A DNA stretch of 64,000 nucleotides from Fervidicoccaceae archaeon. GTDB taxonomy: Archaea; Thermoproteota; Thermoprotei_A; Sulfolobales; Fervidicoccaceae. Where the stretch lies: the NCBI GenBank assembly GCA_038734945.1, contig JAVYOA010000009.1, positions 372,001-436,000 on the forward strand. Direction: 5' to 3'. The position numbers were made by a program. This document shows positions 58,101-64,000 of this stretch, in pieces (within the stretch, counting starts at the first letter, position 1; every line of letters begins with the position of its first letter).

Positions 58101-61100
58101 CTGATGCGGGAATATATATCTTCAGCAGTCTGGCGAGAAAGCTTAATTTGTAGATTTTTGCTACCTCAAGCACATATGATGGTATGAATTTTACGTTTGC
58201 ATAGACCCCAAGTATCAGGTTCCAGGCTTGACTAGTAAATATCAGAAATATAGAGGCCAGTTGTATCCCATACTGCTCTGGTAGCGCTCTCACCATAATG
58301 TCTATAACTATCGGAAAGAAGCCAAGAATAGGAACCGATTGCAAAACATCTATCACTGGATATAAAATTTTTTCTACCTTTTCATTTCTTCCCATAGCTA
58401 TTCCAGCAGCTAATGCAACTAGAACAGATAGAAGATAAGCAAGAAACATCCTCAGCATGCTAGCAGCCAGAGCAGCAACAAGTTCCAAATTATCACCACT
58501 TTGTTTAGAAAAACTTAATAGAGATGATTATATTTTTTATTCAAGGGAGGATGAAAATATAAATTGAGCGAGCACAGGGAATATGTTCTCCCAGTATCAC
58601 CGAAATGCATCAGCCTTGACCATGTAGTAGGTCTTATAGAAACCATATATAGCCTTGGAGGAAAGGCTGATGCTTCCTTCATAAATGATGTAACTGATGC
58701 TGATATAGACGTTCTAACCCACGCTATAGATCTCTCAGAAATATTTGGCTTAATAAAATACAAAGATGGAGATATTGTACTAACCGATCTAGGTTTGAAA
58801 GCCTCAAGAACTCACCTGAGAGAGCTGAAGAAAATATTGAGAGAGAAGTCTGTCGGAATTCATCCCATCGTAGATATAATGCAGAAGGCGAGAGAAAGTG
58901 AAGATAGGTCAATAAATGAGGAAGAGATATATGCGATACTAGAAAAATATTACAGTGAGAACGAGCTGTCCAAGGCAATAAGATGTGTTCTACAATGGAT
59001 CTACTATCTCGAGCTTGGTACATGGGATTATGAGGAGGGAAGCCTGATATTAAAAGAATAATCTCCTCAAAAAACAGTAGAGTTTCCTTTACAGATAAAT
59101 TACTATCTTCTTTATGTTGCTCACCGTTATCTTCTTTACTCCTCTTTGCCCCGGCTTGTAAGCTGTTTTGAGTAGACCAGCCTCTTCCAGCTTCTTTATC
59201 TGGGCACTTGCATTAGCTTTGCTTTGCTTAATGAGCTCGGCAATCTCTCCCACATCAGACTCATGTTCCTTTATGTACTTCAATATATACAGTCTTGTAG
59301 AATTTGCCAGTGCAGAAGCAACTCTAACAATATATTCATCTCCGTTGACATATAGAGTGCCATCCATTTCAATTATACCAGTCTTTCCAACAATCTCCTC
59401 TTCTTCTTTAGTTTTTTTAACTTCCACATTAATCACCTTATTTAAATTAATATTCTAAAATGTTGTTTATTAATCTTATCTTTTTATTTGTAAATATATT
59501 GGATAATACTCAATATCATGGGATTATTCGCTTATAGTATGAAAGTAAAATGCCATTGAGAAACTTTAAAAATATAATATAATTATAAATAAATATAATA
59601 AGTATCGTAAGTTGTGAAGCAGAATAAATCAATTGAGCAATGCACTTTCATTTCTGAAAACAATATTCTTTGCAGAAAAGAAAATTACCACGAATTATTT
59701 CAAATATATTTCAAATATCAACTTACTTACTACAAGTTATTTTTAATATGTTATTCTCACCAAATCATTGAGGGAACAAACGACTCAATCTTGTGGAGAA
59801 GGGAGTGGTGCTGCATTTGAAACTTGGCGAGATCTACAGAAAGGTTCCGCAGAGGGCATTTGGTATACTCTCTCTGGTTGAATCTCTTCTTCCAAAATAT
59901 GAATATGTTCCACAGGAATTGATCTCGTCTAGGATTAGGCTTAATCCAAGTGAGCTCGAGAGACTGCTCGAACTTCTTGTCTCCCTCTCCCTACTCCAGA
60001 GAAGGATTGGTAAAAGCGTTGGATATAGACTCACATATCTTGGACTTAATATCCTCTCTTTAAGGGGGCTAGTGAATAGAGGGATAATTGGAGCAATTGG
60101 TGACAAGATAGGAGTTGGAAAAGAGAGCGAAATATATGAGGCTCTTTCTCCTGCTCAGACAAGGCTTTCCATAAAATTTCATATGGTTGGAAGGGATAGC
60201 TTCAAGCAATTTGTGAGGGTCAGAGGATTTGCTGCTGGAACAGGGTTTTCCAACTGGCTCCTAAAATCGAAACTCAATGCTATGAGGGAATATAGAGCGA
60301 TTACGAGACTCTCGCAGTATACTGATGGAGTTTTGCGACCTTTTGGGTTTAATAAGAATGCAGTTGTAACAGAATTTGTTGAAGGAATAGAGCTCTATAA
60401 AGCCCCGTCATTATCAGATCCTCGAAGAGCATTTGAGGAGATAATTAGAATCATAGAGTTATCTTACTCTTGTGCAGGAATAGTTCATGGTGATCTGAGC
60501 GAATATAATGTTCTCGTCAGGATGCCTGATGAGAAACCTATCATAATTGATTGGCCTCAATATATTGAGAAAAACCATCATAGTGCCTCTGAATTGCTCA
60601 GGAGGGATGTGTGCTACATATCTAGATATTTTAAGAAGAAATTTGGACTAACAGAAGATTGTAGCATGCTATATGAAAGAATTTTAAACGCAAGTTCAGA
60701 AAATATTTGCAGAGAGATCTCTCACTAAAATAAAGGGAAATGGAAATCATGAAACTTCTAGAAAACGAGAAAGAGTCCCCCAAGCTATCCGAAGAAAACG
60801 TCAACAAGTGCTATTTAGGATTAGATTTGTTCAAATATGAGGAAGGAAGAAGGACCTTCTCGATTGTATTGCTTTGCAATGGGAAAGTAGTTGCAAAGTA
60901 CGATGATGTAGGACTGGAAAAGGTTGTGAGACTAAGCTGGGAATGGAACGTTTCAAAAATTGCGATAGATAGTATTACAGAATTAGGCGAAGGAAAGACA
61001 GAAATTGGAAGGTTTGTTTCTCTTCTTCCTGAAAAGACAGAGATCTTTCAGATAAATTTATCAGACAATCAGGAAAGGGATCTAAGGGAAATGCTCCGCA

Positions 61101-64000
61101 GCCAAGGGTTCTCTACTGGACAGCTCACCCCATCGAAAACAGCATATTATCTAGCCCTTCTGGCTTCATATGGATTTGGGAAGGAGGCTGTAAAGAAGGA
61201 AGTCACGACAAAAATAATTGTCAGAAAGAACAGAAACCTTGGTCCAGGTGGAATGAGTAGCAACAGATACAGAAGAAAAGTCAGAACAGCAATACTTCAA
61301 ATAGTCAATTCAATAAAAGATCTGCTAGATAGTGGAGGCTTCGATTACGATCTGCTTTATAGAAAGTCTGGCGGCGGATTGGATGGAGCAACTTTTACAG
61401 TTTTTGCCTCAAGAGAGTCCCTCGAGAGTCTAATCAAGCCTAAAACAGGAACAAGCGTTAGCATAGAGATAAGGCCAGAGTACAAGATCAAGCTCTCTTT
61501 TGAAGAAAGCCCGATGGAAAGCAAGCCTTTAATTGTTGGAATAGATCCTGGAATGACATATGGCATCGCAATTCTTGACATTGATGGAAAGATAATCTAT
61601 GCAGGATCATGGCACAAAATGAGCAGACTTGACGCAGTAGAATTCATAGAGAAATATGGAAAACCAATAGTTGTTGCAACCGATGTATTTCCTGTTCCCA
61701 ACAGTGTTAAGAAGATAGCATCACAGTTTGGATCAGAAATATTTGTTCCAGAAAAAATTCTCAGCGTAGAAGAAAAAAGAACCATGGTGGAAGAAGCTAG
61801 AAAAATTGGAGAAATAGAGAACGTCGATGCACACACAAGGGATGCTCTGGCCGCAGCTTATGCTGCCTATAAGGCTCTATCGAGAAAACTAGCTGAAGTA
61901 AATACATATCTTCAAAAAACAGGGTTGAACCTACCCGCTGATAGAATAAAGAGAAGAATTATTGAGGGTGCTTCTTTAGCAGATGCTGTCGAGGCGGAAC
62001 TAAGAACGTATTTGAGCTCAGTAAACAAGACCATAAGATTGATTTCGTATCCAGAAACTAAAAGAGGAGAACAAAAGGAGAGAAAGGAAATTGAATCAAT
62101 GGAAGTCATACGAAAGGAAAACTTTCTCCTGAGAAAAAAGATCGAGGAGTTGGAGAATGAGCTTGAAAGAAGAGAAAAAGAGCTGTCTCTATACAAAAAA
62201 GGCGTCCTTCAGCTGAGCAAGGAGGATTACTATGCTAGAGAGATACATAGGCTCAGAGAATCCATAGCAGAGATGGAAAAGGCTCTGAAAAAAAGAGAAT
62301 CTGAACTGGAATCAAAGCTTGAAGAGATTAATAGGATAAGCTCCATGCTGAATAGAGTAATAAATGGAGAGATGGTCATCGTTCCAACAATTTCCAGTCT
62401 AACCAAAGCTAATTTAGGAGCTCTGAAAAGCATAAGGAAAAAAATAATCTACGTAGAAAATCCGGATTCCTATCAGAGAGATGCAATAATTGACCTCGTT
62501 AAGGAAGATCCTCTAGCTGTGGCAATACCCGGACCACTATCTGATAGAGGATTGATATCTATTCTCGAGAGCTTCGGGATTCCCGTTCTAAGTTTGTCCG
62601 ATTTCGAATCTTCAAGATTCAATAACATCATCTTCATGAGCTCAGAGGCAGAGAAAGAGGCTATAAAAAGGAAGGAAGAGCTGAGAAAAGCTATCAGGAG
62701 TGAAGAAAAAGAGAAAATAATATCGCTTATTGAGAAGTACAAAGAAGAGAGAGCTAAAACCTCTTCCCTCAAAAAATAACCTTAGAAGAGGGTAATTTTT
62801 CTATTGAGGATCAATTCCGTGTATCTCCTGATGTTCGAGAGCTCTTCATCGACAATAGATTTAGCTGTTTCCCTCATATCACTTGTTATGTTGCCCCTTA
62901 TAGGGGTGAGTTTTATTGATGCTGCCAGCGGTTCATCGATGGGCCTTCCTATCTGAGATAATATTTGTATGCTCACATGAATTTCCGATTCTAGTTCTTC
63001 ATAGATTCTCCTGCTTGCCACAAATGCGAGCACATTATAAATCTTTCCAACATGGTTGATCGGGTTCTTCCCTGCCGTTGCTTCAAGGCTCATGGGCCTC
63101 ATTGGTGTTATGAGGCCATTGGCCCTGTTTCCCCTTCCAGTGGCGCCATCATCTCCGTGCTCCGCGCTGGTACCTGTAACAGTCAGATAAAACTTTCCCT
63201 TCTCTGGAAGATCCCCTGTATTGAAGTGTATTCTCACATTGAATGCTGGTGCCAATTCAGAGGAGAGAGCCTCTACTTCCTCTTTAACTTTCCTCTTAAC
63301 TTCTAGGTATTCATCTGGAGACTTAACCAGACTGCTTATAATAGCTCCAGCAATCGTTAAATCTATCTCGTTCTTTCTTCTGAGACCCATTACTTTTATA
63401 TCTTCACCAAGTTCAGGGATTTTTCTCTTTGCTTCTTTACTGTTCAGATACCTTTCAGTATTTAGAACCAAATTTTCCAATGTAGTGAGAGGATAGAATC
63501 CAACGCCGAAGCTAGTATCATTGGACAGTATTTTTTCCTCATAATCAAAAATTCCCCTTAAATCTTCTGAGCCCTTCCCTATCTTGTAGTCGACTATAAC
63601 ATGCTCCTCAGGATTCAGGTATCTCATGTTCTTGGCTATCCAGTTCTTCACAGCCTTCACAATGATTGTTCCTACAGGTATTTCTTCTACCGCTCCCCCC
63701 ACATTTACATAAGTTGTAGCTCTTCCAGAAACAATTATGTATATCGGCTGATTGACTTTTCCTCCTCCAAATTTTGGTGAAGCTTGTCCGCCAACCAACA
63801 GAACTTTGTCAAGATTATGATGTAGGACTCTCCCATAATTTTTTATATAATATTCCGAGAGAGCAAGGCTCGCTTCTTCCGAAGCTGAATCTGCAATGTA
63901 ATCAGGATGTCCAACACCTTTTCTCTCCACAAGCTCTATCTCCATGCTTTCAGGAATTTGCCAGTTTACTTCCTCAACGAATATGTTTCTCATCATGATG

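Follow-up and report, generated by a model that had tools for sequence, protein, structure and literature searches.

The DUF460 protein encoded directly behind the Rio2 gene of a Fervidicoccaceae archaeon is predicted to be an active, metal-dependent endonuclease that most likely acts on ribosomal particles rather than on DNA. More specifically, we tentatively read it, with somewhat less than even confidence, as an RNA endonuclease that docks on the ribosome and serves late small-subunit maturation or quality control. The gene order and its conservation, the folds, the conserved residues, and a motif similarity are the observations from which we infer the RNA substrate, the ribosome binding, and the step concerned. 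To previous knowledge of this family, the present analysis adds the finding that the protein combines two RuvC-like folds, the second of which has a complete D-D-H-D site, along with two new and mutually independent hints of a link to the ribosome: a loop whose sequence resembles that of the archaeal release factor aRF1, and the presence of NFACT in the gene cluster of one crenarchaeal order.

The Rio2-DUF460 locus

The initial annotation of the 64,000-nucleotide stretch analyzed here (the window) had placed a gene for a 676-aa DUF460 protein 20 nt behind Rio2 on the same strand, and the open reading frames, the Pfam matches, and direct reading of the spacer all agree with this arrangement (Table 1). 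The spacer is too short for a separate promoter, so the two genes are probably co-transcribed and presumably form a two-gene operon. The Rio2 frame spans 59793..60728 (+; 311 aa) from an alternative GTG at 59793, with the GTG at 59808 in frame, and its product scores 136.9 bits against RIO1 and 48.2 bits against the N-terminal winged-helix domain Rio2_N (cut-off 27). The DUF460 protein comprises 676 aa from ATG 60749 or 679 aa from ATG 60740 (ORF 60740..62779, +); residue numbers given here are those of the 679-aa form. Pfam DUF460 (PF04312; 5.4e-43, 146.4 bits, cut-off 28) matches residues 236-373, that is, 233-370 in the 676-aa numbering. The source genome encodes a single copy, and all 73 DUF460 homologues collected carry PF04312. 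The S-adenosylmethionine (AdoMet) synthetase gene, a frequent neighbor of DUF460, lies outside its transcript.

Table 1. Features of the Rio2-DUF460 locus (window coordinates; residues of the 679-aa form)
Feature	Position	Strand	Evidence
Rio2 kinase/ATPase gene	59808-60728	+	Pfam RIO1 7.9e-40, Rio2_N 1.4e-12; ORF
Rio2-DUF460 spacer, 20 nt	60729..60748	+	direct sequence read; 11 nt with ATG 60740
DUF460 multi-domain nuclease gene (predicted)	60749..62779	+	ORF, Pfam, homologues, AlphaFold model
N-terminal RuvC-like (RNase H-fold) domain, residues 24-145	60809..61174	+	
Middle domain, residues 148-256, ferredoxin-like b-a-b-b-a-b, bearing the release-factor-like loop	61181..61507	+	
Release-factor-like loop and helix, residues 168-199	61241..61336	+	motif spacing, profile matches to aRF1
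RuvC-like catalytic module (putative), core of Pfam DUF460, residues 263-394	61526..61921	+	
Antiparallel coiled-coil hairpin, residues 446-486 and 494-541	62075..62362	+	model helices; coiled-coil PDB sequence matches
C-terminal alpha/beta domain, residues 545-634	62372..62641	+	alignment, model
Basic C-terminal helix, residues 636-678, conserved EYRxER	62645-62773	+	alignment, model
Archaeal AdoMet synthetase gene	62782..63996	-	Pfam 8.1e-169, NCBIfam 1.1e-191; convergent with DUF460

Two RuvC-like lobes and a complete D-D-H-D site

In the AlphaFold model (pLDDT 85.1), DUF460 shows the strand-strand-strand-helix-strand-helix-strand-helix succession of the RNase H fold, as in the RuvC-like endonucleases of Majorek clade D, and it carries acidic or histidine residues on strand 1, behind strand 4, and on the C-terminal helix. 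In the catalytic module, D269 (IVGIDPG), D315 (ATDV), and H365 with D368 (HxRD) are invariant in an alignment of 55 sequences; in the N-terminal lobe, D77 and E81 are invariant and G27 and D29 are retained in at least 90% of the sequences. The six residues previously listed as invariant (D74, E78, D266, D312, H362, and D365 in the shorter numbering) correspond to D77, E81, D269, D315, H365, and D368, and alignment and structure comparison bear out the proposed RNase H fold of RuvC/YqgF type and show that its acidic site is intact. The full-length profile retrieves coiled-coil matches and nothing else from the PDB sequences, as noted before, and the C-terminal domain profile yields weak Rossmann-like matches, the best of which (E 6.5e-4) is a designed P-loop protein.

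Bacterial YqgF/RuvX, a member of the same fold class, has been linked to 16S 5' maturation, which fits our preferred reading. The Pfam search lists no YqgF (PF03652) match for DUF460, the fold of which is nearer to RuvC than to YqgF or the YqgF-like domains of Tex/Spt6; furthermore, DUF460 is much larger than YqgF/RuvX, has extra domains, and is patchy rather than universal in distribution. The closest solved folds to the DUF460 lobes are those of RuvC and the IS621 recombinase, both DNA enzymes. Unlike the RuvC resolvase, a homodimer, DUF460 has both of its RuvC-like lobes on one chain, its catalytic module is a single domain of a 679-aa, archaea-only protein encoded in a presumed operon with Rio2, and its second acidic residue is an Asp after strand 4. 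Identity to the RuvC-like domain of the IS110-family IS621 recombinase is 14-15%; the DUF460 N-lobe retains only D29, D77, and E81, the Tnp domain is missing, and no signs of mobility were seen.

These relationships raise the alternative of a DNA repair or junction nuclease, in which the two lobes would pair within the molecule as a pseudo-dimer and resolve or nick branched DNA, the coiled coil would work in the manner of SMC- or Rad50-type proteins, and the Rio2 linkage would be regulatory or accidental. We consider this distinctly unlikely, the RuvC-type D-D-H-D site and the placement of DUF460 beside the junction resolvases (Majorek 2014) notwithstanding. In one locus (L003), Rio2 is two genes away from a TIP49 (RuvB-like) gene, and in another (L102), it adjoins an Ssb-like OB-fold gene, but no DNA-repair or replication genes recur among the neighbors in the Thermoproteota and Halobacteriota loci. 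Archaea are already equipped with the resolvase Hjc, and the aRF1-like loop described below has no known role in DNA transactions.

A release-factor-like loop in the middle domain

The window protein contains the sequence G170-G171-M172-S173-x-x-R176-Y177-x-R179, which has the spacing of the aRF1 motif GGQS-x-x-R-[FY]-x-R, with Met replacing the catalytic Gln. All 131 DUF460 middle domains contain the motif GG-x-S-x-x-R-[YF]-x-R, one of them with G for S; the GGQ position is occupied by Gln in two of these and by Met, Trp, or other residues in 129. Two residues past this position, Gln is found in 80/80 Halobacteriota and 10/51 Thermoproteota domains.

Searched against 177,635 PDB sequences, the middle-domain profile has aRF1 as its top match (3agk_A, E 8.8e-4), on the GGQ loop and helix, and among the 6,556 ORFs of the source genome, it retrieves DUF460, then aRF1 (E 0.0017), and the rest at no better than E 0.87. 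The hhalign comparison with aRF1 M domains gives a probability of 82% over 36 columns. Among 50 domains, Pfam matches to the aeRF1 superfamily are to acVLRF1 (28, at E<=1), baeRF_family2 (5), baeRF_family10 (4), and eRF1_2 (1); acVLRF1 is matched by 26 of 55 full-length DUF460 proteins at E<=0.01, with scores of 28.3 bits for P0067 and 27.0 for P0070 against a cut-off of 27.1. The aRF1 profile matches 27/145 DUF460 proteins at E<=1, always in the same region, compared with 4/1,565 other ORFs, and 1/145 DUF460 proteins at E<=0.01. The window copy (GGMSS) has no aeRF1-superfamily Pfam match and is missed by the aRF1 profile. The release-factor similarity is short (36-50 columns) and weak.

In structure, the middle domain is best matched by those domains of bacterial release factors that bind the A site; the top 50 matches (48,161 chains searched) include no chain of eRF1, Pelota, or Vms1. 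The loop region (residues 161-180) is flexible in the model, with pLDDT down to 73-74. Burroughs and Aravind (2019) describe the release-factor loop along with its arginines, and Vms1, of the VLRF-1 clade, as a ribosome quality control release factor. DUF460 resembles the aRF1/eRF1 M domain and the VLRF1 (Vms1/ANKZF1) clade in the loop-and-helix motif, with some 36-50 flanking columns, but differs from them in the replacement of Gln and in the predicted fold of the domain, which is ferredoxin-like rather than the RNase H-type fold of the eRF1 M domain. No stop-codon-recognition domain on the N-terminal side or Pelota-type domain on the C-terminal side is detected, Pfam giving DUF460 alone for the window protein; the flanks are RuvC-like, and the loop element is fused to nuclease lobes. 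A loop resembling the active loop of aRF1 suggests work on the ribosome over work on DNA, and it points to the A site or the peptidyl-transferase center, neither of which is predicted by the model in the initial annotation.

Rio2 and other neighbors across archaea

Gene neighborhoods were compared in one DUF460 locus per genus for 63 genera of Thermoproteota plus the window (64 in all) and in 80 species-level loci of Halobacteriota, which are not mutually independent. Rio2 is located immediately 5' of DUF460 on the same strand in 41/64 Thermoproteota genera; 13 of the 64 genomes have, as read from the table, no Rio2_N match, so that adjacency holds in 41 of the 51 genera with both genes. The same arrangement is found in 53/80 Halobacteriota loci (two more stop at a contig edge), with the Rio2 stop and the DUF460 start overlapping in 20 of these 53 pairs, and Rio2 is the sole constant neighbor of DUF460 in this phylum. 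Even of the eight short DUF460 forms that lack the first two domains, four lie directly behind Rio2. The pairing noticed originally is therefore genuine and commoner by far than expected by chance, although describing Rio2 as a fixed neighbor overstates the case: two families (f14 and f12) have DUF460 without a Rio2_N match, and at least seven have Rio2_N without DUF460. Nor is the association new: according to a 2016 review, Esser and Siebers had published the clustering of RIO and DUF460 genes in 2013, and Majorek assigned the RNase H fold in 2014.

AdoMet synthetase, previously named as the other frequent neighbor, is indeed found immediately 3' of DUF460, in convergent orientation, in 49/64 Thermoproteota genera, and together with upstream Rio2 in 35/64, but in none of the 80 Halobacteriota loci. 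It has to be considered accordingly, although it appears rather improbable, that Rio2, DUF460, AdoMet synthetase, and, in places, NFACT, CTP synthase, and ArsR make up an old, functionally mixed synteny block, with DUF460 having a different RNA target, such as tRNA or mRNA, and no functional tie to Rio2. AdoMet synthetase rivals Rio2 in frequency among Thermoproteota despite its convergent orientation and the lack of a metabolic connection, CTP synthase and ArsR are repeated neighbors of DUF460 in family f14 and adjoin it in the window as well, and two families retain DUF460 without a Rio2_N match. However, Rio2-DUF460 is the only pair that is conserved in both phyla while the surroundings change, and the two genes run in the same direction, overlapping or separated by about 0-60 nt. 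Such a conserved, tight, co-directional arrangement is typical of co-translated partners.

NFACT, the homologue of Rqc2/NEMF, is encoded within 6 kb of DUF460 in 16/64 Thermoproteota loci, namely, 15 of the 24 genera of the window's order and one further genome (L026). It abuts the 5' side of Rio2 in six loci, lies 3.55 kb past the DUF460 stop in the source genome, and stands beside AdoMet synthetase in one family (f2) and beside Rio2 in another (f5), in either case near DUF460. This linkage, together with the loop, brings up another possibility, which we consider unlikely: DUF460 could be a rescue or quality-control nuclease analogous to Vms1/ANKZF1, whose GG-[M/W]-S loop would enter the peptidyl-transferase center of a stalled 70S ribosome or an obstructed 50S subunit with peptidyl-tRNA, marked by NFACT, whereupon the RuvC-like site would cut the tRNA acceptor end or A-site RNA; the linkage to Rio2 would then reflect shared regulation, with a separate substrate. 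In its favor, the loop and helix look like the section of aRF1/VLRF1 that extends into this center, the middle domain is structurally nearest to A-site-binding domains, and in Halobacteriota, the loop reads G-W-S-Q in all 80 loci, which fits GxxQ, the pattern of the Vms1 loop. Rescue factors are also commonly patchy in distribution, as is DUF460. Conversely, the constant neighbor, Rio2, is a factor of the small subunit, nearly all domains have another residue in place of the catalytic Gln, the similarity to release factors is weak, and the loop-less short forms persist behind Rio2. The NFACT linkage itself is confined to one order and one genome, with 0/80 Halobacteriota loci, and so may be inherited synteny; the conserved archaeal neighbors named in the NFACT paper, Mut7-C and AMMECR1, do not include DUF460.

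A patchy distribution

DUF460 was not found in 129/301 Thermoproteota genomes searched and, therefore, cannot be a universal rRNA-processing step. Among 14 control genomes, three, all archaeal, have a match, and Methanocaldococcus jannaschii has none. DUF460 without Rio2_N characterizes families f14 (25/25 and 0/25, respectively) and f12 (15/17 and 0/17), and Rio2_N without DUF460 characterizes f10, f15, f20, f21, f26, and f30; in f18, Rio2_N is present, and DUF460 matches are no better than E 1e-3 to 1e-4. At the family level, both are present in 17, neither in 4, DUF460 only in 2, and Rio2 only in 7, a weak correlation.

A possible role of DUF460 in the maturation of archaeal 16S rRNA

Archaeal 16S rRNA maturation offers a genuine niche for such a nuclease, the 5'-end RNase. 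Deletion strains of rio1 and rio2 in H. volcanii have been examined for 16S pre-rRNA processing (Knueppel 2018), and a later paper mentions that a part in 16S 3'-end maturation has been attributed to the Rio proteins and Nob1. The 3' end is ascribed to Nob1 and RNase W, and in the words of the 2024 RNase W paper, cleavage of the circular precursor at the 5' end of 16S is carried out "by a yet unknown RNase". Like Nob1 and RNase W, DUF460 is a candidate Rio partner in late 16S rRNA processing; their folds (PIN, and RNase G/E-like plus DUF402, respectively) are unrelated to that of DUF460, and the experimental support is theirs, the literature searched containing no experimental data on any DUF460 protein. 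The original proposal that DUF460 is the missing pre-16S endonuclease thus retains the fold, the Rio2 pair, and the 5'-end gap in its favor, and has against it that the argument is guilt by association, that the 3' end is taken, and that the gene is missing from many genomes. For our own preferred reading, too, there are difficulties: GGQ-type loops target the peptidyl-transferase center of the large subunit rather than the pre-30S particle, and a patchy distribution fits poorly with a universal rRNA-processing step.

Under this reading of DUF460 as a ribosome-docking endonuclease, the order of its parts, from a RuvC-like lobe through the GG-[M/W]-S-x-x-R-[Y/F]-x-R loop domain with its basic helix, a second RuvC-like lobe, and a coiled-coil arm to the C-terminal alpha/beta domain, would translate into a simple mechanism. 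The release-factor-like loop and helix would dock into an rRNA pocket at the A-site or intersubunit face, the coiled coil and the C-terminal domain would hold the protein in place, and the D269/D315/H365/D368 site would then cleave RNA. Rio2 would set the timing, in late small-subunit maturation or final quality control, and the cut would fall either in a pre-16S spacer, the unassigned 5'-end cleavage of the circular 16S precursor being one example, or in RNA belonging to a defective particle.

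The Rio2-DUF460 gene pair and its conservation

DUF460 is a widespread archaeal protein, and Rio2 is its conserved operon partner. The ORFs, the Pfam matches and our own neighborhood counts confirm the tandem gene pair described in the initial annotation; in the window sequence, the gap between the two genes is 11 or 20 nt for the two possible starts of DUF460. The genome (1.34 Mb in 9 contigs, 99.95% complete) carries a single DUF460 gene, for which NCBIfam holds no model and for which a homologue search identifies Fervidicoccus fontis as the source of the nearest named relative (45% identity); hot-spring metagenomes contain DNA nearly identical to this stretch. 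Further 5' of Rio2, the window encodes an ABC transporter and TBP (Pfam); the genes for the AAA_assoc_C-domain protein and the ArsR/SmtB-type regulator separate the ABC transporter genes from Rio2.

Coordinates of the genes, spacer and protein parts discussed (window numbering unless a locus is named; residues of the 679-aa form)
Feature	Position	Strand	Evidence or remark
CTP synthase	53514-55127	+	upstream of Rio2
AAA_assoc_C-domain protein	58564-59061	+	PF09821, E 1.4e-24
ArsR/SmtB-type regulator	59089-59436	-	Pfam; divergent from Rio2
Very AT-rich spacer, ~370 nt	59437-59807		directly 5' of Rio2; presumably the site of the Rio2 promoter
Rio2	59793/59808-60728	+	ORF, two possible starts; Pfam RIO1 7.9e-40, Rio2_N 1.4e-12
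DUF460	60740/60749-62779	+	two possible starts; Pfam DUF460 5.4e-43, residues 236-373
DUF460 middle domain (part 2)	residues 148-256		model: strand, loop, long helix, hairpin, short helix, strand
DUF460 helices (part 4)	residues 400-432		model
DUF460 coiled-coil hairpin (part 5)	residues 446-541		model
DUF460 alpha/beta domain (part 6), then basic C-terminal helix	residues 545-634 for the alpha/beta domain		model
Archaeal S-adenosylmethionine (AdoMet) synthetase	62782-63996		Pfam; convergent, 3' of DUF460
NFACT, 633 aa	66332-68233 (C9 438332-440233)	+	just outside the window (L176); 3.55 kb past the DUF460 stop
TIP49 (RuvB-like AAA+)	L003:9182-10531	-	two genes upstream of Rio2
IS110-family DEDD transposase fragment	L130:8047-8361	+	PF01548, E 5.1e-9; directly 3' of DUF460, Methanothrix

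A DUF460 profile search of 301 Thermoproteota genomes yielded a match in 172, above the Pfam cut-off in 153. From these genomes, we sampled 64 loci, each with 6 kb on either side: the window and a single locus from each of 63 genera. ORFs were called by a simple greedy script and labeled by phmmer with the window's own proteins as queries. Rio2 immediately precedes DUF460 in the same orientation in 41 of the 64 loci, and a convergent AdoMet synthetase gene lies directly downstream in 49, the two arrangements occurring together in 35. Given that 13 of the 64 genera have no Rio2_N match anywhere in the genome, on our reading of a search of the same 301 genomes, the adjacency extends to 41 of the 51 genera with both genes; among the remaining Rio2 genes, one is separated from DUF460 by a single gene, one is convergent, and one is located about 6 kb away. 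The Halobacteriota sample, obtained with a 16-sequence euryarchaeal alignment, comprises 80 species-level loci that are mutually non-independent and come mainly from Methanosarcinales, Methanoperedens, Methanothrix and Methanocellales, along with a few unclassified genomes; Haloarchaea, Thermococci and other phyla fall outside the neighborhood sample. Here, Rio2 is directly upstream in 53 loci, in 20 of which the stop and start codons overlap, AdoMet synthetase is adjacent in none, and the other neighbors vary (LarB/LarC-like and MobA-like proteins, TtuA, isocitrate dehydrogenase). Thus, the Rio2-DUF460 pair is the sole arrangement common to the two phyla. That the pair belongs to a functionally mixed synteny block appears improbable to us.

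A Pfam check of eight Rio2 assignments (L065, L102, L130, L011, L003, L026, L049 and the window) found Rio2_N in seven; the L011 protein shows the RIO domain alone at E<=1e-5, and genomes of its family contain weak Rio2_N matches at the DUF460-adjacent position. TIP49 is encoded near Rio2 in L003, and ORF sizes suggest the same arrangement for L016 and L023.

The pairing is less rigid than the description of DUF460 as the "fixed neighbor" of Rio2 in the initial annotation implies. Among the 30 Thermoproteota genome families listed, 17 have both DUF460 and Rio2_N; f8 (0/43 and 0/43), f13 and f23 have neither, as is almost the case in f16 (DUF460 0/11, Rio2_N 1/11). DUF460 occurs without Rio2_N in f14 (25/25 vs 0/25) and, as short forms, in f12 (15/17 vs 0/17), and at least seven families show the reverse, namely f10, f15, f20, f21 (DUF460 0/18 vs Rio2_N 18/18), f26, f30 and also f18, where DUF460 matches are found at E 1e-3 to 1e-4 alone. 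Across families, the correlation between the two genes is positive but weak, and either can exist without the other. Loci L028, L030, L033 and L027 exemplify the f14 and f12 genomes that lack a Rio2_N match; in f14, the neighbors of DUF460 are a divergent ArsR regulator gene and CTP synthase, both of which are also encoded upstream in the window.

Protein architecture and a release-factor-like loop

An alignment of 55 homologues combined with an AlphaFold model (pLDDT 85.1, pTM 0.49) delineates six parts in the DUF460 protein. The nuclease site, judged by its sequence, is intact. In Majorek et al. 2014 (PMC3985635), the passages on DUF460 assign it to the RNase H-like superfamily, place it beside junction resolvases and Tex, describe it as solely archaeal with the classic aspartates kept, and note that the length of the protein implies further undetected domains. 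Despite this kinship with resolvases, a DNA junction nuclease seems a poor candidate for DUF460, the recurrent neighbors including no DNA-repair gene. As the initial annotation stated, the full-length profile retrieves coiled-coil matches alone from the PDB sequences; searches of the same set with profiles of the N-lobe and the C-terminal domain (parts 1 and 6) returned nothing meaningful. The N-lobe structurally resembles the RuvC-like domain of IS110-family transposases; the transposase fragment of this family next to DUF460 in Methanothrix is probably a coincidence. Eight Thermoproteota genera (L027, L031, L034, L035, L040, L042, L046, L054) encode short DUF460 proteins (368-426 aa) that match neither the N-lobe nor the middle-domain profile; Rio2 precedes four of the eight.

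The middle domain brings a different protein family into the picture. Pfam reports a borderline match to acVLRF1, a release-factor relative, directly before the DUF460 module in euryarchaeal homologues (28.3 bits for P0067 and 27.0 bits for P0070, with a cut-off of 27.1). This model matches 26 of the 55 full-length proteins at E<=0.01, and each of the other families apart from DUF460 itself, all of them coiled-coil families, matches at most 5 of 55. In an alignment of the domain excised from 50 proteins, G23, G24, S26, R29 and R32 (alignment numbering) are invariant. Across the sampled loci as a whole, all 131 domains carry GG-x-S-x-x-R-[YF]-x-R, allowing for one S to G and one aromatic to L replacement. 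Searched as single domains, the 50 excised sequences matched acVLRF1 (28), baeRF_family2 (5), baeRF_family10 (4) and eRF1_2 (1), all within the aeRF1 superfamily; the sole other recurrent family was acylphosphatase (4, E 0.04), and the window's own middle domain, with its GGMSS loop, had no Pfam match.

The resemblance to the archaeal release factor aRF1 emerged in several further searches. Against 177,635 distinct PDB sequences, the top match of the middle-domain profile was aRF1 (3agk_A, E 8.8e-4), with an alignment covering exactly the GGQ loop and the following helix, and the third was another aRF1 (E 1). Among the 6,556 stop-to-stop ORFs of the genome, the profile retrieved DUF460 (2.2e-35) and aRF1 (0.0017), the next best match being at 0.87, and profile-profile comparison with 25 aRF1 M domains gave a probability of 82% (E 1e-5, 36 columns). 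In the reverse direction, an aRF1 profile failed to recover the window's DUF460 protein from the ORFs of the genome; among 1,710 locus ORFs, it found 1 of 145 DUF460 proteins at E<=0.01, one with a true GGQS, and at E<=1, 27 of 145 DUF460 proteins, always through the same region, vs 4 of 1,565 other ORFs. The top 50 chains in a structural search with the middle domain included no eRF1, Pelota or Vms1 (best Foldseek E 6e-3), and an ESM Atlas search with residues 148-256 gave no usable match. Against 1.84 billion representatives, the profile matched 274 proteins at E<=0.001 (252 at E<=1e-10); in the best 150 of these, the domain lies mostly at residues ~90-270 of proteins that are mostly of DUF460 length, the few short ones probably being fragments, and no release factor at a significant E-value is among the 150 matches listed.

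We read the middle domain as a strand, loop and helix resembling the GGQ minidomain, set on a small alpha/beta domain; the likeness of the loop to aRF1 could stem from either common descent or convergence. At the position of the catalytic Gln, the 51 Thermoproteota domains have Met (39), Ser (5), Trp (3), Gln (2), Tyr (1) or Thr (1), and all 80 Halobacteriota domains have Trp. In the model, the loop has a pLDDT of 73-74, which would fit a flexible probe. According to the passages on aeRF1 in Burroughs and Aravind 2019 (PMC6514570), where DUF460 does not figure, the loop of these proteins delivers the Gln into the peptidyl-transferase center, and arginines at the start of the post-loop helix bind large-subunit rRNA. 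A search of the 301 Thermoproteota genomes with PF18859 (acVLRF1) for a VLRF1-like substitute where DUF460 is absent was uninformative, the model picking aRF1 in 286; ordinary aRF1 exceeds the model's own cut-off in 264 of the 301 genomes (E 1.4e-11 in this genome) and, therefore, archaeal PF18859 matches are not to be taken as VLRF1 proper.

Linkage to NFACT

Two neighboring genes are identified by Pfam as NFACT, a homologue of Rqc2/NEMF/RqcH: in L011, a 594-aa gene that immediately precedes Rio2 and, in L003, a 660-aa gene next to AdoMet synthetase. Searches with both proteins place NFACT no more than 6 kb from DUF460 in 16 of the 64 Thermoproteota loci (15 of 24 genera in the window's order, and L026) and in none of the 80 Halobacteriota loci. 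In six loci, all from family f5, NFACT immediately precedes Rio2 in the same orientation, and the linkage has outlasted the rearrangement that distinguishes f2 from f5. Being confined to one order and one additional genome, it may nevertheless be inherited synteny. The passages on NFACT neighborhoods in PMC4075521 give Mut7-C and AMMECR1 as the conserved archaeal neighbors and name neither Rio2 nor DUF460; a literature search for NFACT, archaea and RIO jointly found nothing.

Predicted function of DUF460

We tentatively predict that DUF460 is an RNA endonuclease that binds ribosomes and acts in late maturation or quality control of the small subunit, a reading that we favor because of the Rio2 operon, the intact nuclease site, the release-factor-like domain, the proximity of NFACT in one order and the lack of DNA-repair neighbors. 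Among these lines of evidence, the Rio2 operon still carries the most weight. Maturation of the 16S 3' end has been linked to the Rio proteins, and Knueppel 2018 reports an analysis of 16S pre-rRNA processing in H. volcanii rio1 and rio2 deletion strains. The more specific proposal of the initial annotation, that DUF460 is the missing pre-16S endonuclease working with Rio2, addresses a real niche: in Vayssieres et al. 2024, maturation of the circular precursor at the 5' end of 16S is attributed to "a yet unknown RNase", and the 3' side is ascribed to RNase W and Nob1. Against this proposal stand the patchy distribution of DUF460 and a GGQ-type loop that would be aimed at the large subunit. Overall, the evidence bears out part of the interpretation in the initial annotation.

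Eukaryotic pre-40S particles are checked in 80S-like complexes, and the eRF1 paralogue Dom34 dissolves these. A test of this kind would reconcile a small-subunit role with a loop aimed at the large subunit.

A rather unlikely scenario is that DUF460 mimics a release factor and carries a nuclease, and would be the missing archaeal equivalent of Vms1/ANKZF1 or the no-go-decay nucleases. The GG-[M/W]-S loop and the arginine helix would enter the A site and the peptidyl-transferase center in the manner of aRF1, and the adjacent RuvC-like site, instead of hydrolyzing the peptidyl-tRNA ester, would cut RNA there, in the tRNA acceptor end, mRNA or rRNA. DUF460 might act in this way with NFACT on obstructed large subunits or, alternatively, with Rio2, destroying or releasing new small subunits that do not pass a 70S-like trial. 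Apart from a VLRF1 family that some archaea possess (Burroughs and Aravind 2019, PMC6514570), no archaeal enzyme is known to free nascent chains from obstructed large subunits. A Vms1-like rescue or quality-control nuclease, in general, has a low probability in our estimate, with the loop and the local NFACT linkage on one side and the Rio2 operon on the other.

The literature searched contains no proposed or tested function for DUF460. Pairing and fold are not new because both are in print, the fold in Majorek et al. 2014 and the RIO-DUF460 clustering in Esser and Siebers 2013, as told in a passage of a 2016 review. A full-text search on DUF460 (COG2433, PF04312/IPR007408) found no other relevant paper, and an S. 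acidocaldarius UV study concerns rio1, neither rio2 nor DUF460. In H. volcanii, where rio2 is HVO_0569, HVO_0567 encodes an amylase and HVO_0568 encodes TrmB, the literature search returned nothing on the nearby HVO_0570 or HVO_0571. These searches turned up no published account of the two-lobed RuvC architecture, of the loop resembling that of release factors or of the local NFACT linkage.

Concluding remarks

Both ribosome biogenesis and ribosome rescue in archaea are short of known nucleases. Three model archaea amenable to genetics (H. volcanii, S. acidocaldarius and M. acetivorans) carry DUF460 and, therefore, either role is directly testable. The two-lobed RuvC architecture, the loop and the linkage to NFACT make this family a well-defined experimental target and, if the loop does dock in the ribosome, it would represent a new way to aim a RuvC-type nuclease.
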